Notes: generated by a model not told the origin, from the letters alone. Positions 25,486 to 61,551 are shown, counted from the stretch's first letter. The stretch: DNA of 64,000 bases from Candidatus Eiseniibacteriota bacterium (GCA_963792585.1 CAWBWI010000001.1:1792001-1856000); one strand, 5' to 3'. Program-made: numbers and translations.

Positions 25486-27072
25486 ATGGTTCATCGGAAG
25501 CATCTGGTGACCGTCTTGGTTGGGATCGCATTGGGGGGCACCGGGTGCTCCTCGAGTCATAGGGGGTCCTCCGCGGCCTTGCGCGACGGAGACCCGACGC
25601 GGGCCGAATCGCTTGCCGAGGAGCGCCTCGCAACCAGCGAAGATGATTGGGTCTCATGGCGCGATCTGGGGATTGCCAGATACCAGCTCACCCGGCCGGC
25701 GGAGGCCATCGACCCACTTGGGCGTGCACTCAACCTCCGGCCCGAAGATCGGCAAACGCTGCTGTTCCGAGGGCGTGCGTATGACGCGATTGACAGCATC
25801 CCCAAAGCAATCGCGGCCTATGGAGCTTACGTCGCGCGGGCGAAGGGCAAGGATGAGGCCACCGTCCGGGGACGGATGGAGCAGCTCCGGCGGCAACTCA
25901 TGAAGGCTGACATCGCCCGGATCGTCGCACGCGAGCACGACATCAACAGAATCCCCCTGCAGAAGAACACGATTGCGGTTCCAGATTTCACGAATCCCGC
26001 GAAAACCGACACCCTTCGACCGGTGGCCAAGGGACTCGCGGTGATGACCATCACGGATCTCCTGCGGGTCGACAGTCTCCGGATCGTCGAGAGAGACCGA
26101 CTCACGACCCTTCTGGATGAGTTGCGGCGGGCGAATCCGCGAGCCACCGAAGCATCCAACGCTTCCGCGCCCCAACTGGAACCGGTATCGAGCGTGAAGG
26201 GACAGCAGCAGAGACTGGCAGGGCTCAGAGATCCCGCTGGGGGTGCACCTTTCTACGGTGGGGAAACGAACGGCAGATCGGCCCCCGAGTTCATCGACGC
26301 GGTGAAGCGCTTCCAGAAGGCGCACCGCTTGACGGCGGATGGGATCGCGGGCCGTAAGACCCAGAGCACGTTGGAGGATGAGTGGAATCGCCTCGGCGGA
26401 GAAACGGCTGAGCCGACGCCGGCGACGGCCATCGAGGCAGGAACCGCTCCCCGATTGGGCCGATTGCTTGGCGCACAGAAGATTGTGCAGGGATCTGTCC
26501 TCCCGCTGGGCTCGGAGAGGATCCAGGTCACGGCGGACCTGCAAAACACTCTGACAGGTGAGGCGATCGGCACAACCCCGCCGATCGAAGGTGCCTTCAC
26601 TCAGATCCTCGATCTTCAGAAGGGTCTCGTCTTCGAGATTCTCGAGCTGCTCGGCGTCCGACCGGGTAACAAATTGCGCCGGGAGTTGGAACAAAGGAGC
26701 ACCCGAGACCTGGAAGCCTTCCTGGCCTTCTGCCGCGGGCTTGATCTGGAAGACCGCGGATTGCGCTCCGAGGCCCTCGATGCGTACCGAGAGGCAACCT
26801 CCCGGGATCCTGGGTTCGGGCTGGCGAGCCGTTCCGCAGCCGCCCTCTCGGTCGGAGCGAATGATCTTCAAGAGACGGAACAATCGGAGGCCAGCGAGCT
26901 GGGCGGAGAATCGTTGGACATTGGAGATCGTGCCGCGGAGACCGGCGATCGACTCGGGATCTCTCCTACCGACGGCAACCCGACGGCGCTGGACACGCGC
27001 CGCCCCGACAACCTCCGAGGAGGGACGATTGTTGTAGAGGGAGAGCTCCCCGGTGGTGGGAGGAAACGATGA
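25486..27072 (+). CDS. Lipoprotein with TPRs and a CsgG/HfaB-like domain that has an inserted peptidoglycan-binding domain
   Basis: Lipobox GTGC; TPR helices; IAVPDFTN, LRIVERDRL..LLDEL, RLGRLLGAQKIVQGS; inserted AVKRFQKAHRLTADGIAGRKT (PG_binding_1-like). Confidence 0.75.
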   Translation: MVHRKHLVTVLVGIALGGTGCSSSHRGSSAALRDGDPTRAESLAEERLATSEDDWVSWRDLGIARYQLTRPAEAIDPLGRALNLRPEDRQTLLFRGRAYDAIDSIPKAIAAYGAYVARAKGKDEATVRGRMEQLRRQLMKADIARIVAREHDINRIPLQKNTIAVPDFTNPAKTDTLRPVAKGLAVMTITDLLRVDSLRIVERDRLTTLLDELRRANPRATEASNASAPQLEPVSSVKGQQQRLAGLRDPAGGAPFYGGETNGRSAPEFIDAVKRFQKAHRLTADGIAGRKTQSTLEDEWNRLGGETAEPTPATAIEAGTAPRLGRLLGAQKIVQGSVLPLGSERIQVTADLQNTLTGEAIGTTPPIEGAFTQILDLQKGLVFEILELLGVRPGNKLRRELEQRSTRDLEAFLAFCRGLDLEDRGLRSEALDAYREATSRDPGFGLASRSAAALSVGANDLQETEQSEASELGGESLDIGDRAAETGDRLGISPTDGNPTALDTRRPDNLRGGTIVVEGELPGGGRKR

Positions 27073-28169
27073 AGCCGATCTCGCTTCTCGTATTCGCGGC
27101 GGGTGCGGTTCTCACCGTGACCGCTCCATCGAGGGGTGCGACCGAGATCAAGGTGAGGATCCCCGCGTCGTACCGATCGTGGCAATTCTCCGAGGCCGAC
27201 ACGACCGTGACTGCATCGCAGTGGGTAGCGCCGGTGGTCATCTCGCTCGGACTGTCGCGGAGCGTCGATCTGCTGCTGCAGGGCGCGGTGCAGACGGGCA
27301 AGCGCGACGCCGTGGAGTCCTCCAACCTCTCCGGAGCAACGGATGCGCGCGCGGCACTCCGATGGGGCTCGTCCGGCGGACGGCTGCAGCTCCAGGCAGG
27401 GCTGAACATTCCGACGGGAACTCGCGAGCTGGATGAGGAGCAGCAACGCGTCTCGATAGCGCTGGCGCCTCCGTTCCTCGGGTATCGGGTGCGCCAGACC
27501 GGGAAGGGTCTGGATGTTGGTGGTGGCGTCACGTGTGCGTTCCCGCTGTCGGACGGATGGGCCCTCGGCGTGGGTGGAAGCTATCTCCATCGTGGCAGCT
27601 TTCGCGCGGTGAAGGGGGCCGCGGAGATCCGCCCTGGTGGCGAGATCACCGCCTCCGCCGGAGTCAGCGGTGAGCTCGCGGGACTGGGCGTCCGGGTGGA
27701 CGGCACACGGCGCATCTACGCTGAGGACGGAGAAGGTTCGAACTACAAAGAGCCGGCCGTGTGGGAGGGATCGATGGCCGCGGGCAATGCAGGGCGCGTA
27801 TGGGGATTCGATGTCGCCCTCCTCTTGAGCCACAAGGAAGACGCCGAGGCCGGGTCGTCACCCTATTCGGGGAATTATCTGGGAGGATCGGGCGAGATTC
27901 GACACAGCCTCGGATCGGGCGTCCAGATCGGGGTCGCCGGTGAGGTTGTTCGTTTTCGCAGTACCGAGATCGAGGGCGTGAGTTTCGCCAGCACGACGGG
28001 CGGTGTGGGCCCCAGTCTGGTCCTCTCGTTCGGCGAGGGCACGCGCGTCGAGGGCCGGCTCAAGCGGCTCATGGGAACTCTGGATCCGGGAATCGGAGAC
28101 AGCCAGTCGATCGATGGCTGGGACGCCGTCGTCGCTCTGAGCTTCACCGGGGGCTCGCGGGATCGTTGA
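27069..28169 (+). CDS. Putative outer-membrane beta-barrel protein
   Basis: Signal peptide; alternating Gly/hydrophobic strands (LNIPTG, WALGVGGSY); ATGA overlap with the upstream gene. Confidence 0.65.
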   Translation: MKPISLLVFAAGAVLTVTAPSRGATEIKVRIPASYRSWQFSEADTTVTASQWVAPVVISLGLSRSVDLLLQGAVQTGKRDAVESSNLSGATDARAALRWGSSGGRLQLQAGLNIPTGTRELDEEQQRVSIALAPPFLGYRVRQTGKGLDVGGGVTCAFPLSDGWALGVGGSYLHRGSFRAVKGAAEIRPGGEITASAGVSGELAGLGVRVDGTRRIYAEDGEGSNYKEPAVWEGSMAAGNAGRVWGFDVALLLSHKEDAEAGSSPYSGNYLGGSGEIRHSLGSGVQIGVAGEVVRFRSTEIEGVSFASTTGGVGPSLVLSFGEGTRVEGRLKRLMGTLDPGIGDSQSIDGWDAVVALSFTGGSRDR

Positions 28170-28240
28170 TCTCCAATGAACCGCTGCCCCGTTGAACGAT
28201 CGGTGAAGGGACGCGCCCGGTCCAAGGAGGTTTTTCACAG

Positions 28241-29803
28241 GTGTCCGAGACGATGGTGAACGCAAAGCCTCTCGCGCCGGTCGACGAGCTTTCCGAATGG
28301 AGGACGGAGGCATTCGAAGCTCTCAGGGCAGCCCTCCTCCGAACAGGTTACACGGACTCGATCCTCCACTTCGCCGAGGGCGTCGCGCCGGCGATGTTCG
28401 ATCACCTGCGTCTCCCCCTGGTGAACCGTGCGCTCGAGAGGCGGGGAGACGCCGCGGCCACCCTCGCACGCCTCTTCGCCTATGACGACGCGATCGAGCC
28501 CAGGACTCTGCAGGGGCTTCTCGGGACAGAGTGCTACGGCGTCCTGGAATCCTCCGGGATCCTGAAGACCGCCTCTTCTGCGGCCGATCGGGTGCGATCC
28601 CGATTCCGTCTGCTGCCTCTGGAGGGTCTCTGGATCCTCTCGGATCGGTTCGATGCCGGGACGGATTGTGTCATGGGCCCGGGGCCGACGACCGTGCAGC
28701 TCATCCGCCTCCTCCCCGAACGCGTCACCGGATCGGTGCTCGACGTGGGCTGCGGCGCGGGCAGCCTTGCGCTGGTGGCGGCTTCCCGTGGGGCATCGCC
28801 AGTAATCGGAGTCGATCTCAATGCGCGGGCGCTGGAAACGGCCCGCTTCAACGCGCGGCTGAATGGGCTAAACGTGGACTTCAGGCAAGGGGATCTGCTC
28901 CAGCCGGTGATTCACGACTCCTTCGATCTGATCGTCGCCCAACCCCCCTATGTCTCCCATCCCCCCGGTGTGCCCGCGACGACCTACCTGCACGGTGGTC
29001 CGCAAGGGGATGAAATCGCGATGCGGCTGATCTCGGATCTGCCGCGCGTCCTCTCCCCGACAGGACGCGCGCTGATCCTCATGGATACAGCAGTGCGAAA
29101 GGGAGACTTGCTGTCGAATCGTATCCGCCTCCTCCTGCACGATGCCCCCGTCGACCTGGTCGTGCTCGCAGCGCCGGGCGCGTCGGCGGATCTCCAATCA
29201 ATCGGCTATGCCCTCCTCGATTCTGCCGAAGTCGGATCCGAGTATTCGGCCGCCGTACGCCGGTACCGGGACCACATGGATGCCCTTGGTATCGAGGAAT
29301 TCCGGCACTGCTTGGCCATGCTGCGCGCTCATATCGGCGGTCCCCGGACGGGCGGCCGCTTCACGATCCAACTGAGGGTTCGCACTCTCCCCAAGCGCGC
29401 AGCGACCCTGGAGCGGATCCTCGCGGGACTCGACCTCGCCGCCTTGGATGACGGGGCCCTACGCCGCCGCGCCGTCCGGGCCGCGTCTGGCGCGTTGTGG
29501 GTCGAAGAGAGGCAGGGGTTGGATCCGGCGAGCGAGTCTACGAACTGTGTTCGGTTCGCTCCCGATGACATTCTTCTCGATCAGGAGATCAGCGAGGCCG
29601 GGCGGACCTTGATCGAGGTCCTACATGAGGAAGCGACGATCGACGCCGCGATCGCCCGCTATGCCGCTGTTTGTGATGCCGCGCCCGATGAGGTGAGCGG
29701 TCACGTCCTCGACTTCGTCAGGGAAGGTCTATCGCGAGGCACGCTCGAAGGGGCTCCGGCGGCAACGGAGCACGGCTGTGCGCCCGGGCTGCAGGAGGGG
29801 TGA
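28241..29803 (+). CDS. HemK/MTS-like SAM methyltransferase with a C-terminal PqqD/RRE-like winged-helix domain
   Basis: VLDVGCGAG, GVDLNARAL, FDLIVAQPPY; tail TIDAAIARYAAVCDAAPDEVSGHVLDFVREGLSRGTLE; AAGGAGG RBS. Confidence 0.8.
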   Translation: MSETMVNAKPLAPVDELSEWRTEAFEALRAALLRTGYTDSILHFAEGVAPAMFDHLRLPLVNRALERRGDAAATLARLFAYDDAIEPRTLQGLLGTECYGVLESSGILKTASSAADRVRSRFRLLPLEGLWILSDRFDAGTDCVMGPGPTTVQLIRLLPERVTGSVLDVGCGAGSLALVAASRGASPVIGVDLNARALETARFNARLNGLNVDFRQGDLLQPVIHDSFDLIVAQPPYVSHPPGVPATTYLHGGPQGDEIAMRLISDLPRVLSPTGRALILMDTAVRKGDLLSNRIRLLLHDAPVDLVVLAAPGASADLQSIGYALLDSAEVGSEYSAAVRRYRDHMDALGIEEFRHCLAMLRAHIGGPRTGGRFTIQLRVRTLPKRAATLERILAGLDLAALDDGALRRRAVRAASGALWVEERQGLDPASESTNCVRFAPDDILLDQEISEAGRTLIEVLHEEATIDAAIARYAAVCDAAPDEVSGHVLDFVREGLSRGTLEGAPAATEHGCAPGLQEG

Positions 29804-31707
29804 TCGTGGAGAAGCCTCAGGTTGTCTTGGACATCGTGATGCTTGCAGATCTGGTGGACGATGTCGGTGGAGATCGCTCCCCGCTCGCGCGGCAATTCCA
29901 CTCTGTAGACAGAGACAATCTGGACGCCATGCTGCGAGAGGCAGCGCCGAGGTTCTCATCCATGCCAGGCGGGCCGTTCGGTTCCGCGGAAAACCACTCT
30001 GTCGCTTCGTCGGTCCACTTCGCTCGAAAGCACGTCATCGGGTCGTTCCGGGACTTCCGCCCCGAGCAGCTGGTCGAGGCGATCCCCGAAGCCAGAGAGC
30101 TCCGGCGGCTGCGATCAGTACTGATCGAGGTCGCGCAGGGGAGGAGCGGCCCCGCCTCCGTGCGAGAGGCGCTGTCATCAATCAAGGAGCCGGCGGAGCT
30201 GGTGGAGGCGATCCAGCGCGCGCTCGGAGGATCACCCCCCGTCGGAGGCGGCTCGACCCCGACGACGCACCCGGAGGGACCTGTCTCCGCAATCCCACCC
30301 TCCCCCGGCACATCGCTGTTCGATCTGGTGGACGTCGAAGGATCCAGAGAGGGGGGTGGCGGCGCGGAATCCCACGCCCCCGCGGATAGCCCAGGAGCTC
30401 CCGACAGCGTGCGAGAGGGCTTGGACCGGCTCATCGCGGGCCTGCTGGGGCTCGGGCGCTCGCAGGACGCACCGTCCCCCGCCACAATACGTCCTCTCAT
30501 TGCCGAGACTGATCGCGCGATCGCGAGAATAATCCGCGCCACCCTTCTCGATGCACGATTCCAAACCCTCGAGGCGGCCTGGCTCTCCCTTCGATTTCTC
30601 GTTCGTCGCGTCGACTTTCGTACCGGAATCCGCTTACACATTCTCGCGGCGGATCGCGCCACTCTCATGGATGCACTTCGCGGGGTGACACTCCCCTTCC
30701 TCGATGAGCTTCGCGCCGAAGGACGTCTCGCGTGCGTCCTCCTGGACTTCTCGTTCGGGGGCACAGCCGAGGATCTCTCCGACCTGACGGAGATTGCCGA
30801 AATCGCCGCGGAAGCCAGAACCCCGATCGTCGCTGCGGTCGAAGCTTCCATCCTGGGTGTCCGCTCTCTCCATGAGATCCATACGCTTCCCGATGTGAGC
30901 GACATCTTCGAGACGGCGGGACGGGAAGCCTGGGGAGCCCTCCGCGGACGGGAGGAGTCTCGATGGCTCTCGCTCTGCCTGAATCGCTTCCTACTCCGAT
31001 CCCCGTACGGCAAGGACGCGGACCAGGTGAAGGGACTCGAATTCGAGGAGATCCCAGATGGAATAGAGCATCCTGCCGCGGCCACGCAGGGGGTGTGGGG
31101 ACGTCCGATCTGGTTGATGGGGGCTCTCGTCTCGGACAGCTTCGCCCGCACGGGATGGGGGGTCGAGATCACAGGACCGGGACATGGGGAATCGATCGGC
31201 GATCTTCCGGTCCGTCCCCTCGAGCTGCGAACTGGAGAGATTGTCCAATCGCCCCTCGAAACCCTTCCTTCCGAGAATCGGGTGCTCGAGCTTTCGCGGG
31301 CGGGGATCATCACATTCGCCGCCGCGCGGAACACCGACCGGGCTTTCATCGCAAGCGCCCCGTCGTTCTACCGGCCAGCCAAGGTGGCTGACAGAAATGC
31401 GCAAATCGCCGAGGCGCGCCGCGCGACCCTTCCCTATCAGTTCTTCCTATCCCAGATTCTCGCCTGGACGGAATCGATCTGGCGCAACCTGGATCCAAAC
31501 TCCGCCGCGGAGGATGTCGCCCGGACGCTTGTCGCGGGGGTGCAATTCCTGGCCCTCGGTCCTGCCGGGCCGATCGCGAAGATTTCGGGCGAAGCCGTGG
31601 GCGGCGAGGCGGGATCCACGCGCATCTCCCTTCGGGTCGAGCCCTCGGGAGAACCCTTGCGGGGTTTGCCGCCGATCGCCCTCGAGCTGCCGCTGCCCGG
31701 GATTTGA
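29800..31707 (+). CDS. Single-chain TssB-TssC (VipA-VipB) contractile-sheath fusion homolog 1
   Basis: N-terminal VDRDNLDAML and SFRDFRPEQLVEAIPEARELRRLR align with local TssB (IDKDSFSDVM, TLKDFEPQSVARQVPELAKLLELR); then FQTLEAAWLSLRFLV, RFLLRSPYG and SFARTGW as in TssC. Confidence 0.82.
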   Translation: MIVEKPQVVLDIVMLADLVDDVGGDRSPLARQFHSVDRDNLDAMLREAAPRFSSMPGGPFGSAENHSVASSVHFARKHVIGSFRDFRPEQLVEAIPEARELRRLRSVLIEVAQGRSGPASVREALSSIKEPAELVEAIQRALGGSPPVGGGSTPTTHPEGPVSAIPPSPGTSLFDLVDVEGSREGGGGAESHAPADSPGAPDSVREGLDRLIAGLLGLGRSQDAPSPATIRPLIAETDRAIARIIRATLLDARFQTLEAAWLSLRFLVRRVDFRTGIRLHILAADRATLMDALRGVTLPFLDELRAEGRLACVLLDFSFGGTAEDLSDLTEIAEIAAEARTPIVAAVEASILGVRSLHEIHTLPDVSDIFETAGREAWGALRGREESRWLSLCLNRFLLRSPYGKDADQVKGLEFEEIPDGIEHPAAATQGVWGRPIWLMGALVSDSFARTGWGVEITGPGHGESIGDLPVRPLELRTGEIVQSPLETLPSENRVLELSRAGIITFAAARNTDRAFIASAPSFYRPAKVADRNAQIAEARRATLPYQFFLSQILAWTESIWRNLDPNSAAEDVARTLVAGVQFLALGPAGPIAKISGEAVGGEAGSTRISLRVEPSGEPLRGLPPIALELPLPGI

Positions 31708-31731
31708 GCAGGGAATCGGAGGCATACATCC

Positions 31732-32202
31732 ATGGCCCTCGTCATTCCCCCGGTGACCATCGCCCATGATGACTACGCGGGAGCGACCCTGAGAGGTGTG
31801 TACGAGGCTCTCCCGAACGAGCCGGGGTTGTGTGAGTGGATTCCGAGCTTCAGCTACGAGGGAGTCTCGTCCCGGGGTCTCCCGGAGCGGCTCACCGTGA
31901 CGATGCAGATATCGATCCGCATGCCCCGCTGGACGGGGCGGGCCGGCGCGAGAGCGGTCGAAATGGCGGAATGGGATCGTTTCTACGCGGCGCTGCTGGA
32001 GCATGAGCGGGGCCACGAGTCTCGCGCCCGCGCGGGGGCGGCGGCAATGCACGCCCGCATGCAGAAGGCGCTGGCGGCAGACCTGCAGTCGGTCATGGAT
32101 GAGGAAAACGAGAAGATCAAGGCCACGAACGCGGCCTACGACAACGCGACGGATCACGGAAGACAACCCCCACCGGGAACGACCATCACGTTTCCGCCGT
32201 AG
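31732..32202 (+). CDS. Small HExxH zinc-peptidase-like protein (DUF922-like)
   Basis: IRMPRW...EWDRFYAALLEHERGH...YDNATDHG; no signal peptide. Confidence 0.72.
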   Translation: MALVIPPVTIAHDDYAGATLRGVYEALPNEPGLCEWIPSFSYEGVSSRGLPERLTVTMQISIRMPRWTGRAGARAVEMAEWDRFYAALLEHERGHESRARAGAAAMHARMQKALAADLQSVMDEENEKIKATNAAYDNATDHGRQPPPGTTITFPP

Positions 32203-32245
32203 CCCACCCCCCGGCGGGATTCGGTTCGATGGAAAGGAGCCGTAG

Positions 32246-33637
32246 ATGAACACCATGCCCTGGAAGCTTCTGGTTCTCACGGAAGCGGGTGTCCCGGGGA
32301 ATGCGGGCGTCGAGGGGCCGATCCGCTGCCCCGGTGGTGACGACGGAGCCTCCGCGTGGCTTGGGACCCTTCGTCCCGTTGTGGAGGTGCCGTCTTCGGG
32401 CGGGTCTGTTCCCCCGTCGGCGAACGTCATGCTCGATTGCCACGACCCTACGGCATTCGAGCCCGCTGCGATTGCCGCACGCCTCTCATCCACGGGGAGC
32501 GTTGAGCCCAAAGAGATCGATGCTGTGCTGCATCATCCCCCGTTCCAGAAGGTGGAATCGGCCTATCGGGGATTGCGGCTCCTTCTTTCGCATACGACGG
32601 ACGAGATCGAGGTGTGGGTCCTTTCGCTGTCGCGGAAGGAACTCGCGGAGCGGTTCCGCAAGGTGATCTTCGATCCGTGGAATGCCGACGCAGAGGCTGC
32701 TCCCTGGGCCTTGATCCTCGCAGATTTCGATTTCACCCATCGGCCCGAGGATCTCGCAATGTTGCGTGAGCTGGGGACGATGGCCAGGGTCCTGAAGGCC
32801 CCGATCGTCGGCGCGACGTCACCGGCGTTCTTCGACCTCCGCCATATGTTCCACGTGACAGCGCTGCCGGATCTCGCGGGCCGGTTCATGGATCCGGCGC
32901 ACGCGGCCTGGCGCATATTCCAGGCCAGCGAGGACGCACGATGGGTGGCCCTCACGATCAATCGCTATCTGCAACGACCTTCCTACGATCTCGATTCGAT
33001 CGGGTTCAAGGAGGCGGCGGAGGAGGCGAAGCCGGAAACGTACCTGTGGGGACGAGGGATCTGGCTGGTCGGCGCGGCGGTCGCGCGAAGCGTCGCCACC
33101 CATCGTCATGCCTTGGACCTCTCCGGGCGCGGCGGCCACTTCGATGATCTACCGTTTCGACCCTTTCCGGTCGCCGCCAATGAGATGGTTTCCTTGTCGA
33201 CAGAAGTCCCCATGCCCGAGGAGAAGTCGCAGGAGTTTTCCCGGGCCGCATTCACCCCGCTGGTGGGTCGGATCCGCAGCAACGTCGCGGTTCTTCCGAT
33301 TGCGGTCACTCTGTTCCGGCTGCAGCCCGGCCGTTTGACCGTGGAAGGGACGCTTGCTTATCCGCTCATGGCCGGTCGGCTCGCCCAGTTCTGCGATCTC
33401 CTGTTATCAAATCTTCCGGAGGGGGATGAGAGCGTGGCGGCGGGCTTCTTGAGGACCGAGCTGCTCGGATTCTTAGGTGCACTCGCCGGTGAGGAGCCCG
33501 AAGCGGCGGTGACGGTGGAACTGGAACACCAGGAGGCCGACGGAAAGAGCCGGGTGCTCGCGAATGTGATGGTTCGTCCGGCGGTTCCATTGGAGGGGAA
33601 GAGGATCGAGTTCGGATTCGTGCTGCCGCTTTCCTGA
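32246..33637 (+). CDS. Compact TssB-TssC sheath fusion homolog 2
   Basis: MPWKLLVL and AFEPAAIAARL resemble TssB LPLKLMVL and DFEPQSVARQV; then VLHHPPFQKVESAYRGL, EDARWVAL and YLWG as in TssC. Confidence 0.8.
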   Translation: MNTMPWKLLVLTEAGVPGNAGVEGPIRCPGGDDGASAWLGTLRPVVEVPSSGGSVPPSANVMLDCHDPTAFEPAAIAARLSSTGSVEPKEIDAVLHHPPFQKVESAYRGLRLLLSHTTDEIEVWVLSLSRKELAERFRKVIFDPWNADAEAAPWALILADFDFTHRPEDLAMLRELGTMARVLKAPIVGATSPAFFDLRHMFHVTALPDLAGRFMDPAHAAWRIFQASEDARWVALTINRYLQRPSYDLDSIGFKEAAEEAKPETYLWGRGIWLVGAAVARSVATHRHALDLSGRGGHFDDLPFRPFPVAANEMVSLSTEVPMPEEKSQEFSRAAFTPLVGRIRSNVAVLPIAVTLFRLQPGRLTVEGTLAYPLMAGRLAQFCDLLLSNLPEGDESVAAGFLRTELLGFLGALAGEEPEAAVTVELEHQEADGKSRVLANVMVRPAVPLEGKRIEFGFVLPLS

Positions 33638-33658: not shown

Positions 33659-34936
33659 CTAGATGCTGAGGCCCAGTTCCAACGCCTGGCGGAATCCAGG
33701 AGCCCTGGTTTCATACAATGCGCCGCGGCGTTCGTACGCCGCGAGGGCGAGCGCCGCCGCTCGGCGGTGACGCTGGCGCCCGGTCCTCAGAGCTTCCCGC
33801 AGCCCCTCGACCGAGAACGGTTGGCCGAGGAAGTATCTCTCTCCCGGTTGGAATCGGCTTCGGTTCGTGTCCCACCATCGCCGCACGAGCTTGGGGTCAG
33901 GCATGGGCAGATCCTCATCGGGATCCAACTCAATCGACTTGTCTGGAGAAGTCTCGACCTGATCTTCCATTGCTCCCTCCGGGGGCGAGCAATCGAGATC
34001 GTTCAGCGCCAAGTCAACACCGGTCAACAAACTGAATCCCTCTCCGGCGCTTTTCGTCACCTCCTGGTCATCCATCATTTCGAGCAAGACCGGGATTCCG
34101 ATGGGGTCTCCCATGAGTCCGATTCCGACCAGAGCGAGCGCGGTGGTGGCCGGTCGCTTGCTCAGTTCGATCAGCCAATCGTAGGCAGAGCCGGAAGGGC
34201 TACAAGCCACGATCGTCTCCAACGCCCTGCGGCTAAACGGGCCCTCACGATCTAACGACTCATGGAGGATCCTAAGAGCCTGGGGATCGCAGGTGAGCAG
34301 CGCGGCCGACCAGGCCGCGGCAATCATGACTTCCGGCTGTCCGTCCTCCAACCCTCGGCGCAGAGTGGGGCTATGCGCCATCGCACCGATCTCCCCGATC
34401 GCAAGATAGGCGCGGGTACGCAGCTCGGGGTCGGGGTCATTGGCCGCCTGCAGGAGGGCGGGCCCCGGATCTCGTCGTTGGTTTGCATAGGCCGCTACGG
34501 CGACTCGCCTAGCGGGACCGCCGGACTCCATCAGGAGAGTCGCGAGGTAGTGCTCCGCGACCTCGAAATCGAGCCAGCTCAAAGCCGACGCGAGCCCCCG
34601 GGACAGATCGTACGAGGCGATCCCAGCCTGAAGGGCATCATCCATCCACTCGGACTCGTCCTGTTGCAGCCCGAGCACGGCGGCAACGAATACCTCCCCC
34701 GCGTCGCCTCCCGACAGAGCGGCCCGGCAGATTGCCCAGCCCGCATCACCCGCGATCCGGAGGCCATCGAGATGCGCCTCGATTCGGCCGTCCAGTCGAG
34801 CAAGATCGCGCAGGTCATAGTGGGGAGCAGATACGGCCGCGTCCCTCAGGATCCAGAGGAACGCGGCGTCCTCCGCGTGCTGGTCGACGATGACCCGATT
34901 GATCCTCTTCGGGCCGGCTAGTCGATTCGTGTCCAT
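33659..34936 (-). CDS. TIGR02270-family HEAT-repeat protein (T6SS effector-module associated)
   Basis: HAEDAAFLW..R..AV.APHY.L.DL..LD.RI.AHLDGL; AGEGFSLLTG; LPMPDP..V.RWW. Confidence 0.82.
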   Translation of the reverse strand: MDTNRLAGPKRINRVIVDQHAEDAAFLWILRDAAVSAPHYDLRDLARLDGRIEAHLDGLRIAGDAGWAICRAALSGGDAGEVFVAAVLGLQQDESEWMDDALQAGIASYDLSRGLASALSWLDFEVAEHYLATLLMESGGPARRVAVAAYANQRRDPGPALLQAANDPDPELRTRAYLAIGEIGAMAHSPTLRRGLEDGQPEVMIAAAWSAALLTCDPQALRILHESLDREGPFSRRALETIVACSPSGSAYDWLIELSKRPATTALALVGIGLMGDPIGIPVLLEMMDDQEVTKSAGEGFSLLTGVDLALNDLDCSPPEGAMEDQVETSPDKSIELDPDEDLPMPDPKLVRRWWDTNRSRFQPGERYFLGQPFSVEGLREALRTGRQRHRRAAALALAAYERRGALYETRAPGFRQALELGLSI

Positions 34937-35823
34937 TCCGATCCATCGAAAGACATGACGTCCTTCGCACCGATCGACCAGAGTACCCCGTCCGCCGCGC
35001 TGAGATGGTAGGCGGATTCGGCGGGGTCATCCCCCATACCCACTACCACAAGCGCGTTCCCTTCGAGGGTGAAGACCTGGCGGAGCGTAGAGGCATAGAG
35101 TTTATCGTTGTACCATGCGAGTCCCCAGATGTCCTGTAATGAACTCTCGTGCTCGATGACCTCCCATGTCTCTCCTCGACCCCGCAGCAGAACACCCCGC
35201 CGGCCGGAGACATAGACGTTTCCATCACCCGCACAGCAAACGTTCGTGAGGATCGTGTTCGTCGGGCTGTCAATCTGCCGCCAGACCTTGCCATCGTAGT
35301 GCCAGATTGCCCCCTGCCAGCCAACGGCGTAGATGTCTTTCTCGGAGAAGCCATCGATTGACTCGAAACCGACCACCTCGCTACTGCCGGGTTCGGGGCG
35401 CATCGTGGCGTCGATGCAAATCCAGCGGTTCGCGTCCTCCCGGCGGTAGACTTGTCGATCCATCCCGGCTGCGTAGGCCCGGCCCCCGATGGATCGGACA
35501 CAGCGGAGGGTCCCGCGTTTCTCGGGGATGCTTGGTCCGTCTGCAATTTGCTCGGTATGCATGTCCCCACCACCGGCTACCTGGACGTCCCCGAATTCGC
35601 CGATTGCCACACCCTGTCTGGCCGGGTGGGACATGACAGCCACAGACACTGGGTTCCACTTCAATGCGACTTGCGCCCACTTTCCAGAGTCCCATTGCAG
35701 CATGTACCCGTGAGGCGCTTGCTGTTTCGCGAGATCGTCATTGACGATCAGAAGGTAGGCTCTTGTCCTTGAATACACCGCGGCGGTCATATAGCTGAAT
35801 TCGTCCGTCCAATGCCCCGCCAT
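34918..35823 (-). CDS. Beta-propeller protein, candidate immunity protein
   Basis: Directly downstream of the toxin gene; repeated blades (IYAVGWQGAIWHYDGKVW, VYVSGRRG, FDGSEW); no signal peptide. Confidence 0.65.
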   Translation of the reverse strand: MAGHWTDEFSYMTAAVYSRTRAYLLIVNDDLAKQQAPHGYMLQWDSGKWAQVALKWNPVSVAVMSHPARQGVAIGEFGDVQVAGGGDMHTEQIADGPSIPEKRGTLRCVRSIGGRAYAAGMDRQVYRREDANRWICIDATMRPEPGSSEVVGFESIDGFSEKDIYAVGWQGAIWHYDGKVWRQIDSPTNTILTNVCCAGDGNVYVSGRRGVLLRGRGETWEVIEHESSLQDIWGLAWYNDKLYASTLRQVFTLEGNALVVVGMGDDPAESAYHLSAADGVLWSIGAKDVMSFDGSEWTRID

Positions 35824-35855
35824 TTCGTCACCTCCTGCATCTTTCAACCGGAGAA

Positions 35856-37040
35856 CTACGCCCAGTCTCCGGTCTCGCGACTGGCAGCGAGCGCGTCCTT
35901 GGCTGCGGTTACGTCTGCATCACTGGTCCGCCCGCTGGCTGATCCCCTCAGGCTCGTCTTGTCGTCAATATTCTTGTCGTTGTGATACTTGTTGAGCTGC
36001 GCCTCCAGGCACTTCGTGGAACAGCCGGACTCCGGAAACACCTCTTTGGCGGCATCGACCCCTTGTTTCCTCGCCTGGGCGAATGTCACCTTGTCGCTGT
36101 TGTTCGCAGCCATGTTCTTGATGGCGGCATTCCCCTTGAATGTGTGCATCAGTCCGTGCGTGGCCGTCGTGTTGTTTGGGCCCTCGACGCACATGCATGG
36201 CGCCTTCTTGGCGTCATAGTCCTTGCACCCCGGCATGGGGGTGGAGTCGGACCCCTTCTCACCGCGGCCCTTGTCGAAGAAACAACTAGCGTCCACTAGA
36301 TGGTCTCCGGTCTGACCCGGGCAGCATCTGACGGGTCTGAACGGCGCGAGGAGGCAACGCATTTTGGTGTGGCAGTCGCTCGCCCCGATCTCCTCCGAGA
36401 GCTTCCGGTACTCGCCTGCCCAAACTACTTTGGCAGCCTCATGCTGCGGGCTGCCGTCTCCTCCGAGTTCCTTCGCTTTCGCCATCTTTTCAGTGGCGGC
36501 ATCGATCCCCGCTTTGCTCGGGCACTTCAGCTTTTCCTTCTCGGGTGTACAGGCCGTCTTGGCATCCTCAACCTCCTTTGCGCACTCCCCCGTGCTGTCC
36601 GCCAGCGCTGCCCGCTTCATGAACGTCCAGGGGGGGGTCTGCCCCGGTTGTGACATGTGGTTATGCGTCATCATGTCGAGATGTCGGACCGCGTTCTGCC
36701 CCTCGAACTTCACATCCATCGACCACGTGCAGAAGAAGACCTTCCCCGTGATACCGTGAGTGATCACACCCATCCCGAGGGTCTTCGTCGCGGCTTCGTC
36801 ACCCGTGCATTTCTTGAAGCTGGACTGATCCTTGAGCATCACCTCCTTGCCGCTGACCTTCACGTGCTTTGAGCCGCTCTTCGTGTCGGAGTCCATTGCG
36901 GTGACCGGATACGGAATCGGGACCGGGCCGGCCGGTGGCGAAGGAGGACTCAGACAAACGTCCGGGAAGGCAGCTATCGACTTCCCGCTTCCCGCCTTGC
37001 AGGCAACCTCTCTGCCGTTTGCAAAGACCTTGTTGCCCAT
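35856..37040 (-). CDS. Specialized PAAR-like effector: DUF4150 fused to a Tox-GHH2-type HNH nuclease
   Basis: FPDVCLSPPSPPAGPVPIPYP and SMDVKFEGQNAVRHLDMMTHNH; C-terminal CCPGQTGDHLV...APCMCVEG...THGLMH...CLEAQL. Confidence 0.85.
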   Translation of the reverse strand: MGNKVFANGREVACKAGSGKSIAAFPDVCLSPPSPPAGPVPIPYPVTAMDSDTKSGSKHVKVSGKEVMLKDQSSFKKCTGDEAATKTLGMGVITHGITGKVFFCTWSMDVKFEGQNAVRHLDMMTHNHMSQPGQTPPWTFMKRAALADSTGECAKEVEDAKTACTPEKEKLKCPSKAGIDAATEKMAKAKELGGDGSPQHEAAKVVWAGEYRKLSEEIGASDCHTKMRCLLAPFRPVRCCPGQTGDHLVDASCFFDKGRGEKGSDSTPMPGCKDYDAKKAPCMCVEGPNNTTATHGLMHTFKGNAAIKNMAANNSDKVTFAQARKQGVDAAKEVFPESGCSTKCLEAQLNKYHNDKNIDDKTSLRGSASGRTSDADVTAAKDALAASRETGDWA

Positions 37041-41958: not shown

Positions 41959-43077
41959 CTACCGACCCGCGTCCTGCTTTCCGAGATCGAGGTAGGCCTG
42001 CAGTGCCCGCGTTCGATTCCCTGCGCCCGGATCCGCCGGGTTCAGATCACGAACCTCCTTCCAGGCAGCGGCCGCCGCCGCGTAGTCGCCTCGATCCTCG
42101 GCCTCGATCGCCTCTCCACTCTTCAGGAGCAGATCCAAGTAGACGGTCTTGACCTGCTGTTTCTTGTCGTTCAGATACGACTTCACGTTGCCCTGGAGAT
42201 CCCGCTTCTTCCCACCGGATGCGAGAAAGGTCTCCACTTCCGGGATGAGAAGATCGAGCAGGACCTTGCTCTCCAACTTGAAGAGGTCATCCGAGGAACG
42301 CACGGACATCGCGATCCCTTTGGACAGGAGCACCTCTCCGGTCTCGGTCTGCACCCAGCGGAGATCCAACCGGATGTGCTTCTCGTCAGTCTGCATGATG
42401 CTCCCAAAGAGAAACGACTGGGCCCCCGTGAGTTTTCCGAAGCGGACACGCGTTTCCGGATCCCCGATGACCCCCGCCTGCCCCATTTCGATCTCCTTGA
42501 GCAGGACGGCCAGACGCTGCCTGTCGACAATCTTCAGCGGGGTGACAGCCTGAAGGTCCGTCGTGATGACCTGTGTCAGGCCGCGTGCGAATCGATCGAG
42601 GTCATAGGCGCCCCGCACAATTGAGTTGTTCTCGATCTCCCCCACCGCAAGCGTGGTGATGTTCGATTCGGGGGCGCCTCCCGTAGCGCTGAGAACGCTG
42701 TCCCGCAGCGAATAGAAGAGCCGCACGACGGGAGGGGGCAGCAAGTCGGGTCGTGGGAGATCTGCGCCCGGATTCTCCGACAGAAGTTGCAGGAAGGAGG
42801 CGCGGGCCGGAGCTGTTTTGCCGGTCGACACGTAGATCGCTGCCAGGGTCGTCAAGACATCAGCTCTCTGATCGGCGGATAGGGATTCTCGTCCCGTGAG
42901 AACCGCCTGCCCGCACTGGATCGCTTCGGGGGCTCGCAACTCGAAGAAGAACGAGATCGGATCGTTGACGAATTGGGCCATTACCTCATTGGCCTGCGCC
43001 CCCGCAACTCCGGACGCAAGCGGGGCTGCCCAAGCGGCCAGGCCGATCGCCATGCGGTACGCGGTCCGCGCCATCAT
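41959..43077 (-). CDS. Exported CsgG/HfaB-like domain protein with TPR-like helices, located between tssH and vgrG
   Basis: Signal peptide; LAVGEIEN, LKIVDRQRL..LLKEI, FGKLTGAQSFLFGSI, LRWVQTETGEVL; start overlaps the tssH stop. Confidence 0.72.
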   Translation of the reverse strand: MMARTAYRMAIGLAAWAAPLASGVAGAQANEVMAQFVNDPISFFFELRAPEAIQCGQAVLTGRESLSADQRADVLTTLAAIYVSTGKTAPARASFLQLLSENPGADLPRPDLLPPPVVRLFYSLRDSVLSATGGAPESNITTLAVGEIENNSIVRGAYDLDRFARGLTQVITTDLQAVTPLKIVDRQRLAVLLKEIEMGQAGVIGDPETRVRFGKLTGAQSFLFGSIMQTDEKHIRLDLRWVQTETGEVLLSKGIAMSVRSSDDLFKLESKVLLDLLIPEVETFLASGGKKRDLQGNVKSYLNDKKQQVKTVYLDLLLKSGEAIEAEDRGDYAAAAAAWKEVRDLNPADPGAGNRTRALQAYLDLGKQDAGR

Positions 43078-49680: not shown

Positions 49681-49797
49681 GGTTCCCCACTCCTTGGGTG
49701 GCAGTCTTCAAACCTTCGGTGCGGGCGCGCCACCGATTCACCCCCCGATTGCCTCCATGCGGCCGCCTCGACGACTCTCAAGACCTCAGGGCGCGAC

Positions 49798-51283
49798 CTA
49801 CTTCTTGTCCAGCTTCCCAACGAGGGACAGGGTGAAGAAGGCGCCCATGTACTTGAAATGCGGTCGAACGTTGAGTCCGACTCTGAACCAACCCGGATCT
49901 CCTTCGACATCTTCCACGGTCGACCTCGGCCTGACGAAGGGGTCGGCGTCCGCGGGTGGCAGCGCTGGCGTCGTCCATCTCAGCAACGTACTGGTTGATC
50001 CAGGCGTTCAGCTCCCGGCTGAGATCGCTCTTCTCTTTCCAGCTGCCGATGTTCTCGCGCTGGATGACTTTGAGGTAATGCGCAAGTCTGGAGATGATGA
50101 ACATGTAGGGAAGCTGCATACCCAGCTTGTAGTTCGCCTCCGCTTCCTTGCCTTCCTTGCTTTGGCCGAAGTACTTCGGCTTCTGGCAGGAGTTCGCGCT
50201 GAAGAACGCAGCGTTGTCCGACCCCTTGCGCATCGTCAGTCCGATGAACCCCTCTTCGGAGAGTTCGAGCTCCCGGCGCTCGGATATCAGCACCTCGGTC
50301 GGGATCTTCTGCTCCGTCACCCCCATCGTCTTGTAGACATGGACCGGGAGGTCTTCGACAGCGCCGCCGCTCTGGGGCCCGATGATGTTGGGACACCACC
50401 GGTATTTCGCGAAACTGTCGGTCAATCGGGTCGCGAAGGCGAAGACTGCATTCCCCCAGAGGTACTTGTCGTGGCCGTCGGTGACGGTTTCCTCGTATTG
50501 GAACTCCTTGATCGGAACCGTCTCCTCGCCATATGGCAGACGGAGCAAGAACCGCGGCATCACAAGACCCACGTAGCGGGCGTCTTCCGATTCGCGGAAC
50601 GACCTCCACTTCGCATACTGCGGGGCCTCGAAGATCGACTTCAGGTCTTTCAGGTTCGGAAGGGGCAGGTACGAGTCTTCGCCGAAGAACTTCGGTCCCG
50701 CCGCCGCCAGGAACGGAGCGTGAGCCATCGTCGCAACGGAACCGCTGTACTGGAGGAGCTTCATGTCCTGAGGATGCGCCGTGAACTCGTAGTTGGCGAT
50801 CATGGCGCCTACGGGCTCACCGCCGAATTGCCCATACTCCGCCGTGTAGACGTGCTTGTACAGGCCGGACTTCACGATCTCCGGAGAATCCTCGAAGTCG
50901 TTCAGCAGATCGTCCTTCGAGACATTCAGGATCTGCATCCTGATGTTCTCCCTGAAATCAGTCCGATCCACGAGCAGCTTCAAGCCCCGCCATGCCGATT
51001 CCATCTTCTGGACCGAAGCATGATGGAGGATCTCGTCGATCTGGAGGCTCATCTTCCGATCCAGCTCGGTGATCATCTCATTGACGATCGATTGATGAAC
51101 CTTGACCGAACCCTCGGCGCGGACCAGCTCCTTCATGAAGGCCTCGAGGCCCCGCTTCGCAATGGAGTAGCTTTCGTCGGAGGGTTTGTACTTTGTCGTT
51201 GAGATGATCTCGTCCAGAACGTTCGCCTCTGCCTCGGTCGTCTCTTTCGACGAGGGTTCCCGTTTATCTTCCGTTTCCGCCAT
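49798..51283 (-). CDS. tssC: T6SS sheath large subunit TssC (VipB); frameshift near 49920
   Basis: VLDEII N-terminal helix, ILHH..VQKMESAWRGL, EYGQFGGEP, RFLLRLPYG, YLWGNA, RLAHYLK; end RPHFKYMGAFFTLSLVGKLDKK in the shifted frame. Confidence 0.95.
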
Positions 51284-51318: not shown

Positions 51319-51828
51319 CTAAGCGCCTGAACCGGAGTCTCCGGACTCGTCGAGTCCGAGTTCCTTCATGATCCGCTCCCTCTGCGACTCGTCCTTCAGC
51401 AGTTCCTCGATCTTCCGCCGGAAGGCGGGAACGTTGGCGAGCGGTCCCTTCAGGGCGGTGAGCGCGTCCCGCAGTTCGAGCAACTTTGCCAGTTCGGGCA
51501 CCTGCCGAGCGACCGACTGCGGCTCGAAGTCCTTCAGGGTGTTGAGGGAGAGACTGACGGGGAGCTCGTCTCCCTCCTTGCCGGTGAGCTTGTTGGCGAC
51601 GTTCATGGTCACGCTGAGCTTGTGCTGCGCCATCACGTCGCTGAAGCTGTCCTTGTCAATGGAAACCGGCTTGCGTTCTTCCAGCGGCGTTGCGTCGGAC
51701 CGGCCGGTAAAGTCACCGAGGACCATCAACTTCAAGGGCAGTTCGATTTCCGCCTGCGCTGAGCCGGTGGCCGGCTTGTATACGATGTTGACCCGTTCCT
51801 TCGGGGCGACTGAAGCTTCCTTCGCCAT
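51319..51828 (-). CDS. tssB: T6SS sheath small subunit TssB (VipA)
   Basis: SVAPKERVNIVY, ELPLKLMVLGDF, DFEP..VARQVPEL.KLLELR.AL..LKGPL.N. Confidence 0.95.
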   Translation of the reverse strand: MAKEASVAPKERVNIVYKPATGSAQAEIELPLKLMVLGDFTGRSDATPLEERKPVSIDKDSFSDVMAQHKLSVTMNVANKLTGKEGDELPVSLSLNTLKDFEPQSVARQVPELAKLLELRDALTALKGPLANVPAFRRKIEELLKDESQRERIMKELGLDESGDSGSGA

Positions 51829-51952: not shown

Positions 51953-53567
51953 TCAGCCCTTCCCCTCAAGTGAAACTGCGGAACCAAGGTCCAGCCGGGA
52001 GATTCTCCCGAGGAGCTCCCGGGCACGCGCAAGGTCCGCCGCTGAGGCTGGATGTCCTGCGGACATAGCCTTCTGGTGGCATGAATAGAGGGCTTTCAGG
52101 ACTTCCAGGCAGAGATCGGGGGCCCAGTCTTCGCAACGGGAGGACTGGAGATCCCCATCCAGCATTACGAGTTGGGCAAGCGCCGTTTGCACAGCCCCCG
52201 CCTCCAAACAGAGCCGGGCCATTTCCAGGTTCCACATTGCTCTTCCCCTGATCGAGTAGGCCTTCGCGGCTCCATCCTCAAGCAGCCTCAGAGCTTCGGG
52301 GAGCTTCTTCTTCCTTGCGAGATTCCGAGCTTCCTCCCGCGTCCGGCTCAGCCGCGCACGCTCTTCAGCGGATTGGTCTCCGGACTCTGCCGATGCGGTC
52401 GGTCCTTCGGAACCCGTAGTGGTAGCTGGACCACCAGACCCATCGGGGGCCCCCACGCGGTCCCGGATCCAGGCACGGGTCCTCTCGTCAGCCAAGGGTT
52501 GTCCATTCTGGAAACGGAGCGATTCGAGGCCAGGAACTCGAGCCAGCAATTGGGCCAACTCCAGCACGACCGCTTGCGCCGCCGTGAGAAATGATTCACC
52601 CATTCCCTCCAAGGCAGTGACGGTGAAGCGGTGCAGATCCACCCAGAGCACGGCCGTTGGGAGCCGTGATTCGCTTTGTTCTAGTGCCGCCACCCATTGC
52701 CCTTCATCGAGGAGAGCTTGGATCTTCGCAGCAAGATCTTGCGGCAGGGGCGCCGGGATCTGGGTCTGACCGTTCTCGTTGGGAGGCGGCCCTACGAGGC
52801 TCAACCAGCAGGACATCCGGAGAAGCCGGTAAGGTAGCGGGTCAGCGGGGTCGTTCGTCCGCAGGAACTCGGATGTCCTTCGGGCCAGATCCTTGAGATC
52901 GCTGATCGCATGGACGGCTTCGTCCTTGCTCCGGACTTGCGCAGGGATACGCCCCTCAGCGGCCGCGGCCGGAACGACGGACGCCGGCTCGGATGGGCTC
53001 CCTTGCGCCGCCCGCCGCCCGGACTCCTCGAGCGCGCCCTGCAAATTCTTGAGCAACTGCGAGCCCGAGTCGAGCTTTGGTTCCAGGCTGGATGCGATCT
53101 CTGTGGCCAGCGTCTTGCAAAGCGCCAACCACTCGCCGTCGTCGGATCCTGGTGGTCGATTCTCGATCGCCTTCGAACCGCGCTCGACGAGCCACTCGAT
53201 GGCGGCCGTCCGGCCGCGCACTCGCTTCAAATTCGGGGTAGAGCGTCTCCCAGTACCGATCGATGAGCTCTTTCAATATGCTGAGACCCGTCACGAGTCC
53301 CGAATAGCCATCCCTTTGGAAGAGGCCAAGGCAGAGATAGCTGGCAGGGAGAAGATCCTTGGACTTCCTCCCAAGAAGCTCCGCGGCTGCGTCGATCACG
53401 ACTCCCCAATCGGGTTGCCGACCATCGGGCTCTTCCAACTTCCGAATCTCACCTTGTAGGACCTCGAACTGCGGCTCGTCGCGCCCCGGATCCCCAGCCG
53501 GCGCGTCCGGCCGAATGGGTTGGATCCCCATTTCGAGAATCTCGGCGGCTGTGAAGTTCTGGCTCAT
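51953..53567 (-). CDS. tssA: TssA (ImpA_N plus VasJ-like C-terminus); frameshift near 53228
   Basis: PI..DAPAG.....EPQFE.LQ.EI.KL, DW..V......LL..KSKDL, RYWE.LYP; then DPLPYRLLR, WVDLHR, LRFQNGQPLADE.T..WI. Confidence 0.9.
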
Positions 53568-60846: not shown

Positions 60847-61437
60847 TCACGGGCCGGAGGGAGGCGCGATACCCGTGTCGGGCAGTTGTTCTTGCCAGAA
60901 GCGCCGATACCCGCGACGAAACCCGTCCACAAAGAAGCGCTCGAAGTCCCCAGGTTCGAGGGTCCGGTATTCCTGGAATTTCCTCAGCATCTCCTCCCAG
61001 ATTGCCTGCACCAGGAGGGGTTTCCAACCGGAACTCAATCGCAGCGGGCCCACCTGCACACTTCCACCCTCGAAAGCCTCGCGAAGCCGTTCCGGATCCA
61101 CGCTTTGCAGCAACTCGCGCGCGCCATCCTGGGTTGCCTGCTGGTATCCCTCGAGCAGCGCGGCGTGGTGGATTTTGAGTTCGTGGATCCCCATCTCCAA
61201 CTCGCGGAGGGCTTCACTCCACTCGTGGGGGTTGAACAGCCGCTCTGCGAGCATCTCGGGCCGAAGGACGGTGCCGGGCGTTTCAGAAGTGGAGAGCCCG
61301 TAGACGCGTCGGAACTCCTCCATTCCTCGACGCATCTCCAGGTAGAATCCCAGGAGAACAAGATTCAATTCACCTAACCGGGAGGGAGCGCTTCTGGCAC
61401 CCGGCCCGGCACCCGGAATCGCGCCCTCTGCTTCCAT
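60847..61437 (-). CDS. TagH-like C-terminal domain protein lacking an FHA domain
   Basis: ELKIHHAALLEGYQ.A....LL..VDPE.L, W......Y and F...F...FRRGY resemble the TagH/Fha C-terminus; only 196 aa. Confidence 0.65.
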   Translation of the reverse strand: MEAEGAIPGAGPGARSAPSRLGELNLVLLGFYLEMRRGMEEFRRVYGLSTSETPGTVLRPEMLAERLFNPHEWSEALRELEMGIHELKIHHAALLEGYQQATQDGARELLQSVDPERLREAFEGGSVQVGPLRLSSGWKPLLVQAIWEEMLRKFQEYRTLEPGDFERFFVDGFRRGYRRFWQEQLPDTGIAPPSGP

Positions 61438-61495
61438 ATCTCCTAATGCCTCTCTGTGCGGAGATGAGGTGAACGATATTCGCACGAAACATGAA

Positions 61496-61551
61496 TTGAC
61501 CGTACGCTTTGAAGAACTATAGAACTTAATGCGTCTGAATCGATTGGTCAA
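61496..61551. promoter_or_regulatory. Overlapping divergent sigma70-like promoters for the T6SS operon and the rightward genes
   Basis: Plus strand TTGACC(61496)-N16-TATAGA; minus strand TTGACC(61551)-N17-TAAGTT; the -10 elements abut in an AT-rich gap. Confidence 0.55.

Follow-up and report, generated by a model that had tools for sequence, protein, structure and literature searches.

One-piece TssB-TssC paralogs without the TssB N-terminal arm in a gene cassette beside a type VI secretion cluster of Candidatus Eiseniibacteriota

A six-gene cassette converges on a type VI secretion cluster

We analyzed a 64,000-nt stretch of DNA from Candidatus Eiseniibacteriota bacterium (GCA_963792585.1, CAWBWI010000001.1:1792001-1856000; hereafter the window, whose coordinates are used throughout) that holds a type VI secretion system (T6SS) gene cluster and, converging on it, a cassette of six co-oriented genes. 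Two of these, genes 4 and 6, encode one-piece paralogs of the TssB and TssC sheath proteins from which the TssB N-terminal arm (N-arm) is absent, and are real T6SS accessory genes. The cassette reads as follows:

Gene 1, 25486-27072, + strand: predicted lipoprotein with TPR, CsgG and PG_binding_1 domains (Pfam)
Gene 2, 27069-28169, + strand: exported protein, likely an outer-membrane beta-barrel by inferred fold
Gene 3, 28241-29803, + strand: S-adenosylmethionine-dependent methyltransferase, MTS (Pfam)
Gene 4, 29800-31707, + strand: single-chain TssB-TssC paralog, long form, with VipA (weak) and VipB (Pfam)
Gene 5, 31732-32202, + strand: DUF922 protein (Pfam), putative zinc peptidase
Gene 6, 32246-33637, + strand: single-chain TssB-TssC paralog, short form, with VipB (Pfam)

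The open reading frames (ORFs) and spacings described in an earlier note on this DNA were confirmed: successive genes are separated by -4 (ATGA), 71, -4 (GTGA), 24 and 43 bp, and the stop codon of gene 6 lies 21 bp from a converging TIGR02270 gene of the T6SS. A Shine-Dalgarno (SD)-like site precedes each of the six starts; gene 1 (528 aa) is counted from an SD-preceded ATG, an in-frame GTG at 25429 having no SD. Each of the six ORFs aligns in a single reading frame to its ortholog in G003, a relative from the same family, at 59-74% identity, and the GC content of the cassette is not distinct from that of its surroundings. Because of the gene overlaps, co-transcription of the cassette is likely; neither a sigma-70 site nor a + strand terminator was detected at the cassette, a result that is uninformative on this point. 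Contigs from an RNA library of a ~89% identical relative span genes 1-3 as well as the stretch that runs from the last part of gene 4 to the first part of gene 6; these contigs extend over neighboring genes with comparable depth and might represent DNA.

Genes 4 and 6 encode single-chain sheath paralogs without the TssB N-arm

Domain searches confirmed two sheath homologs in addition to the tssB and tssC of the main cluster, and the entire genome holds three VipB-family genes only, namely gene 4, gene 6 and the normal tssC. Profile alignment placed gene 4 on TssB residues 27-126 (hhalign 96%) and TssC residues 37-473, its TssB part matching PF05591 (E 1e-8), and gene 6 on TssB 29-112 (hhalign 16.7%, E 0.0015, a weak match) and TssC 76-481. 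The single-chain architecture proposed earlier is therefore borne out for gene 4, while for gene 6 it is weak by sequence and clear by fold. Both genes match PF05943 and neither matches PF18945 (VipB_2). Their identity to TssC is ~24-31%, and the single chains score below the cut-offs of TIGR03355 (208.6 and 142.3 bits vs 271.5) and TIGR03358 (33.4 vs 97.25).

The missing part of TssB is the N-arm, i.e. the handshake strand and its linker, as the alignments begin at TssB 27-29. At most six residues precede the first core strand in 78/81 gene-6 homologs, and 7-9 residues do so in 11/11 gene-4 homologs; an in-frame stop lies directly upstream of the gene 6 start. Structure prediction gave confident models for gene 4 (predicted local distance difference test, pLDDT, 87; predicted template modelling score, pTM, 0.85) and gene 6 (pLDDT 94.5, pTM 0.94), both of which match T6SS sheaths first (Z 31-34, root-mean-square deviation 2.6-3.9 Å), up to TssC residue ~475-484. 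Most single-chain sheaths of phages, pyocins and extracellular contractile injection systems are matched from sheath residue ~19-30 onward, the gene 6 model aligning to single-chain sheaths from its residue 1-5.

Since the structures align to TssC residue ~478, the models indicate that the inner (gp25-like) domain and the C-terminal arm (C-arm) are retained in both paralogs despite the absence of a Pfam VipB_2 match. The terminal strands comprise residues 456-461 in gene 6 and 626-631 in gene 4 and follow a conserved pattern (in gene 6, E450 in 80/81 and F456 in 70/81 homologs). The acid aligned to VipB D333, a numbering that assumes chain 3j9g_B to begin at residue 61, is kept in 80/81 gene-6 and 11/11 gene-4 sequences. 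The two forms differ in the outer domain. In gene 6 this ClpV-binding domain is missing, TssB 112 being joined to TssC 76 within five residues. Gene 4 keeps an outer domain, together with a TssC-like N-terminal helix motif, SLFDLVD, that resembles the VLDEII of TssC and is conserved in 11/11 sequences. TssC's N-terminal helix is reported to bind ClpV in other systems (PMC5048182); the SLFDLVD motif falls in a stretch with pLDDT<50, and ClpV binding by gene 4 is putative.

The paralogs form separate clades and accompany normal sheath gene pairs

In a tree of 68 hand-picked rows, built by a quick method with fragments and near-duplicates excluded, the gene-6 type formed a clade of 21/21 rows (support 99) and the gene-4 type one of 14/15 rows (support 95). 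A third type of TssB-TssC fusion (16 rows, support 98) and the normal TssC together with a second TssC (16 rows, support 99) made up separate groups; forks deeper than these four sheath groups were unsupported. On the evidence of this tree, the gene-6 and gene-4 types are old, separate clades. Low TssC identity and the frameshifted core genes of this assembly (see below) might suggest that the paralogs are merely decaying tssBC duplicates. This reading is refuted by their conservation, with ~96 gene-6 homologs at 39% identity or more, a fixed start and end, deep separate clades and intact frames, and we give it practically no weight.

VipB-type TssC occurs in 21 of 60 related genomes, and 20 of these 21 carry at least one single-chain paralog; the remaining genome is 68% complete and split into 1250 contigs. 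A further set of 32 gene-6 loci from GTDB, ~8 of which overlap the 60 relatives, stems from Eisenbacteria, Planctomycetota, Myxococcota, Acidobacteriota and others. T6SS genes lie inside the locus at 24/32, and the respective genomes encode a normal tssB in 31/32 and a tssC in 31/32 cases. Gene 4 accompanies gene 6 at 13 of these loci, and genes 1 and 2 together at seven. Occurrence without a full T6SS, which the earlier note had left open, is limited to a sole candidate (G077), in which gene 6 sits at a contig end and which is not counted as evidence. Because normal tssB is present in nearly all gene-6 genomes, the separate sheath-derived assembly considered earlier is unsupported. The wider family was surveyed in 62 metagenome loci, many of which are short and some of which represent normal tssBC or near-duplicates.

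The 22 T6SS genomes split into two subtypes, 15 with a long TssA and seven with TagJ. The former (the genome of the window and 14 relatives) share the window's TssB type, one ImpA_N gene and gene 6; ImpE/TagJ had no match in any of the 15, and TssA is long wherever seen whole. A gene-4-like gene is present in 10 of the 14 relatives, the copy in G047 falling outside the gene-4 clade. The seven TagJ genomes have short TssA frames and no gene-6 type, and 6/7 have the third fusion type. We take TagA to be a second TssA-family gene with an ImpA_N domain. No such second gene was detected, the count being one ImpA_N gene per genome in 22/22, and the domain is in none of the six cassette genes.

Every carrier of gene 4 or gene 6 encountered is a metagenome-assembled genome or contig. 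No cultured gene-6 carrier turned up: plasmid records gave no match of at least 80% coverage, and the profile search matched proteins from metagenome-assembled genomes and metagenomes only. The third fusion type, whose consensus ends before the inner C-terminal domain, occurs in cultured Leisingera and Eleftheria. On the Leisingera plasmid (L087:17592-21704), it forms the C-terminal end of an annotated ~1370-aa ORF between tssH and vgrG, and the T6SS that contains it on the Eleftheria terrae plasmid has four tandem hcp genes (L088:2270-4506). As to neighbors of the single-chain paralogs, gene 4 is immediately preceded by a short-chain dehydrogenase gene in three genomes from two families (L024:8847-9626, G008; L030:11045-11809, G025; L084, G021), and in G047 (L035:8812-11425) tagF is immediately followed by two divergent single-chain paralogs.

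The adjoining T6SS cluster and the state of its assembly

One T6SS, the main cluster, occupies 33659-61551 on the - strand. It comprises the TIGR02270 gene, a likely immunity gene, a PAAR-like/GHH2 gene, adaptors, vgrG, a second TPR/CsgG gene, clpV, tssGFE, hcp, tssCB, a long tssA, tagF, tssMLKJ and a C-terminal FHA piece. The genes that bear on the paralogs and on gene 1 are:

Second TPR/CsgG-like gene, 41959-43077, - strand: between clpV and vgrG
Normal tssC, 49778-51283, - strand: main cluster, frame change near the 3' end
Normal tssB, 51319-51828, - strand: main cluster
Long tssA, 51953-53567, - strand: ImpA_N and VasJ, in two frames, the sole ImpA_N gene detected genome-wide

Compared with intact relatives, vgrG, clpV, tssF, tssC and tssA carry one frame change each (at approximately 41057, 44890, 47027, 49930 and 53234), and the six cassette genes carry none. 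This corresponds to five changes in ~15.6 kb of core genes vs two in 28.3 kb of 23 other genes. Homopolymer errors were rejected as the source, since the runs at the breaks are no longer than background. The changes reflect either assembly error or early decay.

Toward its ends, the cluster shows further features. At 60847-61551 (- strand), the C-terminal part only of TagH is found (T6SS_FHA_C, weak), and a genome search detected no FHA domain nearby. Positions 34918-37040 (- strand) encode first a PAAR-like protein that has a GHH2 nuclease domain and then the product of a likely immunity gene; RNA-library contigs of the close relative skip this interval, consistent with a variable effector module. 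Beyond the FHA end lie a 350-aa gene without confident family (61840-62892, + strand), a PEGA protein gene (62792-64000, + strand) and, just past the window, a third TPR/CsgG gene (L091:3375-4544). In G008, G013 and G040, homologs of these three are again located at the FHA end of the T6SS. A relationship of the 61840-62892 gene to a kinase-like gene beside a Planctomycetota pair was considered and discarded, the similarity being nil.

Genes 1 and 2 encode a predicted envelope pair

Gene 1 carries Cys21 after a hydrophobic stretch, which predicts a lipoprotein signal, and a partial match to CsgG (PF03783; 22.2 bits vs a cut-off of 20.8); no curli genes turned up among its scanned neighbors. 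Gene 2 has no Pfam match even at E 1, single-member NCBIfam matches only and no solved relatives. Among its Atlas neighbors at 0.98-0.99, one is named 'Transporter family protein', and another neighbor cluster has Phenol_MetA_deg (PF13557) in 11% of its members. An outer-membrane beta-barrel is the likely fold.

Modeled together, the two proteins scored 0.83 vs 0.00 for the best of three controls, a mark reached by 116/157 solved and 2/215 mismatched pairs, with a contact agreement of at least 73% and a partner pLDDT of at least 84. The predicted interface joins gene 1 residues 476-512 to alternating residues across most of gene 2, and the gene 1 tail is conserved (R482 in 19/22, P494 in 20/22, G519 in 21/22 and P522 in 22/22 sequences). 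The model supports a predicted binding of the gene 1 tail to the gene 2 protein; our reading is that the tail would lie inside the barrel lumen, the tool itself having reported no fold.

Genes 1 and 2 adjoin each other in the loci examined and are usually preceded by the second CsgG gene, which in most relatives is the first cassette gene, directly before gene 1. Close orthologs of that gene (E<1e-40) are present in 18/21 T6SS relatives and 0/39 others. The pair lies upstream of a sheath paralog on the same contig in 9/21 T6SS relatives, and three more have it at another place in the T6SS cluster; in the rest, it is contig-broken, distant or not found. The gene that follows the barrel differs between loci, being a methyltransferase, an Ig-repeat protein, a kinase or a sheath paralog.

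The closest relatives of the pair outside the family are in G002 and G011, neither of which has a VipB-type TssC. Independence of the pair from injection systems was rejected on inspection of these genomes: both hold a Bacteroidota-type TssC/TssD/VgrG cluster within ~6-7 kb of the pair, which is followed by a Ser/Thr kinase gene in each. Weaker CsgG-barrel sets exist in genomes without a TssC match (e.g., G007 and G016). Overall, three kinds of T6SS, as well as kinases, were seen to have the lipoprotein-barrel pair as a neighbor. Genes 1 and 2 form a module of their own within the likely shared transcript and probably provide envelope input or an anchor for T6SS assembly. The Bacteroidota-type clusters (L101:11264-15597 in G002 and L102:84-5031 in G011) contain a PF17541 TssC, two TssD tube genes and VgrG. 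Second copies of the pair (L104:3382-9013 in G002 and L105:6927-12100 in G011) run lipoprotein, barrel, Ser/Thr kinase and CsgG, then FHA in G002, and likely represent a trans-envelope signaling unit.

Genes 3 and 5 are passengers rather than parts of a six-gene unit

Gene 3 has the motifs DVGCGAG and QPPY and is MTS/DUF7059-like, the matches to DUF7059 (E 0.004) and to a C-terminal PqqD-like domain (E 0.07) both falling under cut-off. Full-length orthologs are present in 9/60 relatives and adjoin the T6SS in two only; members of its family are frequent in Myxococcota, Actinomycetota and Acidobacteriota. Gene 5 matches PF06037 with 71.4 bits vs a cut-off of 27 and carries an HExxH motif (HERGH at residue 91), marking it as a putative zinc peptidase. 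It is present in 2/60 relatives and, where found, sits between genes 4 and 6. At the 32 gene-6 loci, gene 3 occurs once and gene 5 five times, and neither was seen in the 62 metagenome loci. By this distribution, genes 3 and 5 are variable, lineage-specific passengers.

These data bear on the earlier note's central proposal, that the six genes form a module for building, modifying or anchoring an alternative sheath, or else make up a sheath-derived assembly of their own. The genes are tightly packed, recur in the same order in G003 and in consistent pieces in the ~89% identical relative, and a T6SS is present in each of the nine relatives whose methyltransferase ortholog is full-length, one further relative (G019) having the gene at the T6SS edge. 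However, the full order is found in 1/60 relatives, gene 3 lies away from the T6SS in 7/9 genomes and belongs to a widespread family, gene 5 is rare, and the cassette has no tube, baseplate or cap gene of its own. An alternative working sheath is unlikely because loss or rerouting of the N-arm, absent here in both paralogs, stops secretion or contraction in published systems. Six-gene assembly is thus very unlikely, and the idea of a conserved unit is already largely refuted by gene order and by the distribution of genes 3 and 5. What stands of the T6SS accessory cassette is its core, genes 1, 2, 4 and 6, for which synteny is conserved.

Armless rings as a possible latch on the extended sheath

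Each normal sheath subunit ties to the ring below via two arms, and rerouting of a lengthened TssB arm leaves rings linked by the TssC (VipB) arm alone (PMC5813253). Linker-altered VipA subunits are reported to be non-contractile and dominant and are inferred to co-assemble (PMC5797969), and deletion of the IglA N-terminal strand abolishes secretion while foci remain (PMC5924787). According to PMC10433429, long TssA as a rule acts together with TagA in keeping the sheath primed. Because genes 4 and 6 resemble the N-arm-defective state, and because long-TssA systems use TagA and none was detected here, we tentatively propose that the products of genes 4 and 6 form predicted armless, non-contracting rings that latch the extended T6SS sheath in place of TagA.

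We infer the incorporation, position and release of the paralogs as follows. They would join the cell's single T6SS sheath, docking via the C-arm into the TssE ring or a TssC ring and accepting arms from the next ring. With no N-arm, the ring-to-ring pull of contraction would stop at the paralog ring, which would take the place that TagA has elsewhere, as a latch or a collar at the end, and hold the sheath extended until release. Gene 4, which keeps the TssC-like helix, would be removable by ClpV; gene 6 would not. A broader scheme, in which armless rings replace TagA in Eisenbacteria and other uncultured phyla and the lipoprotein-plugged barrel senses the envelope and times the assembly site or latch removal, strikes us as an improbable extension.

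Several observations weigh against a latch. Four of the 14 relatives with gene 6 showed no gene 4 beside it. Two related subtypes underlie the fit to TssA type, which amounts to about two independent events, since related genomes are not independent, and a divergent TagA or TagB could have escaped detection. Five core T6SS genes carry frame changes in this assembly, and the nearest non-family relatives of genes 1 and 2 sit in genomes without sheath paralogs. The acceptor domain is kept in both paralogs, which are therefore not natural chain terminators, and the region matching the tube-contact helix of TssC has diverged, as judged by eye. The models end in a strand (gene 6 456-461) that aligns to the final residues of crystallized sheath proteins, among them one structure titled pre-assembled; a closed free monomer fits equally well. 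Finally, the wider family occurs near FHA (23/62) and kinase (18/62) genes in the metagenome loci, a neighborhood that suggests signaling.

The last two points would also suit paralogs that act outside the sheath as soluble mimics, with the C-arm folded into its own groove and the monomer binding or titrating TssE, TssA, ClpV or an FHA protein as an output of envelope or phosphothreonine signaling. The monomer models are of high confidence, and their C-terminal strand aligns with monomer-like crystal structures up to the end; this agrees with such a role, as does the invariant TssC-like helix motif of gene 4. Yet gene 6, the more universal paralog, is without that helix, the D333-aligned acid and the C-arm pattern are conserved, and this genome has no detected Ser/Thr kinase gene closer than ~85 kb to gene 1; we consider soluble mimics rather doubtful. 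Near-universal presence among the T6SS relatives could instead mark the paralogs as required adaptor rings, i.e. a first baseplate ring or a distal collar, that promote assembly without locking it, akin to the extra TssC of Agrobacterium, where TssC40 and TssC41 are reported to be non-redundant for Hcp secretion (PMC3702570), or to the several sheath proteins of extracellular injection systems. In published models, however, the baseplate pulls the N-arms of ring 1 (PMC5924787), and an armless first ring could not transmit this pull; moreover, the paralog genes are often separated from tssBC, being located on the opposite strand or, in G008, with ~30 kb between them and the closest core gene. 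Adaptor rings therefore appear improbable, and the latch remains the reading we tentatively favor.

Novelty and implications

A literature search, which did not extend to subscription journals and supplements, found no natural TssB-TssC fusion and no description of the cassette, in keeping with its earlier designation as undescribed; three apparent matches to TssB-TssC fusions proved to be GFP fusions. Extra TssC genes are already known (PMC3702570, PMC5813230, PMC5807055), and PMC5813230 states the purpose of extra sheath genes to be unclear. The present analysis adds a division of the systems by TssA/TagA/TagJ type, the prediction of a plug complex, and the finding that the six genes do not make up one conserved unit. 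How the T6SS sheath stays extended and what triggers its contraction are still-open questions that the armless paralogs touch: natural subunits without the contraction-carrying arm would test the ring-by-ring model and, if the proposal is true, represent a new firing control. The predicted barrel-plug pair would be an unnamed envelope complex.

Comparison with known systems

The closest known structure is the T6SS TssB/TssC protomer (VipA/VipB; PDB 3j9g, 5n8n, 5urw, 9n4v), with which the paralogs share the fold of the middle and inner domains (Z 31-34), the C-arm and the D333-aligned acid. They differ from it in being one chain, in lacking the N-arm and, for gene 6, the ClpV domain, in falling below the NCBIfam cut-offs and in occurring as extra genes besides normal tssBC. 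Engineered non-contractile sheaths (VipA-N3/N5 and the IglA N-strand deletion) likewise have no N-arm ring link, which predicts no contraction; genes 4 and 6, in contrast, are natural, conserved, single-chain and separate genes, and their behavior is only predicted. With the stabilizers TagA and TagB/TagJ they would share the role of holding the extended sheath, although these proteins are not sheath homologs and genes 4 and 6 are.

Agrobacterium TssC40 is likewise an extra sheath paralog beside a normal pair, but it is TssC-only and adjoins tssC, whereas genes 4 and 6, both fusions, lie on the strand opposite to tssC at a distance of 16 kb. The same arrangement as that of TssC40 is seen for the second TssC of G038, which groups with normal TssC in the tree, a tree built without the Agrobacterium sequence itself; G038 (L076 with L085) has this second TssC plus a third-type fusion. 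Unlike a stand-alone contractile injection system, the cassette lacks its own tube, baseplate and cap genes and coexists with a normal tssB.

The envelope pair recalls TslA/OmpA (PMC9251886) and TagQRST-PpkA-Fha, which also combine a TPR exported protein or lipoprotein and an outer-membrane protein with a T6SS, by analogy only; no homology came up, though no direct comparison was made. Many lipoprotein-barrel copies adjoin Ser/Thr kinase and FHA genes, as do the envelope inputs of TagQRST-PpkA-Fha; here, however, the pair combines a CsgG-like domain with a barrel of its own, which the lipoprotein tail is predicted to plug, and has no kinase nearby. The third fusion type of TagJ-type systems is, like genes 4 and 6, a TssB-TssC fusion encoded apart from tssBC, but it forms a separate clade without the inner C-terminal domain, which genes 4 and 6 keep.

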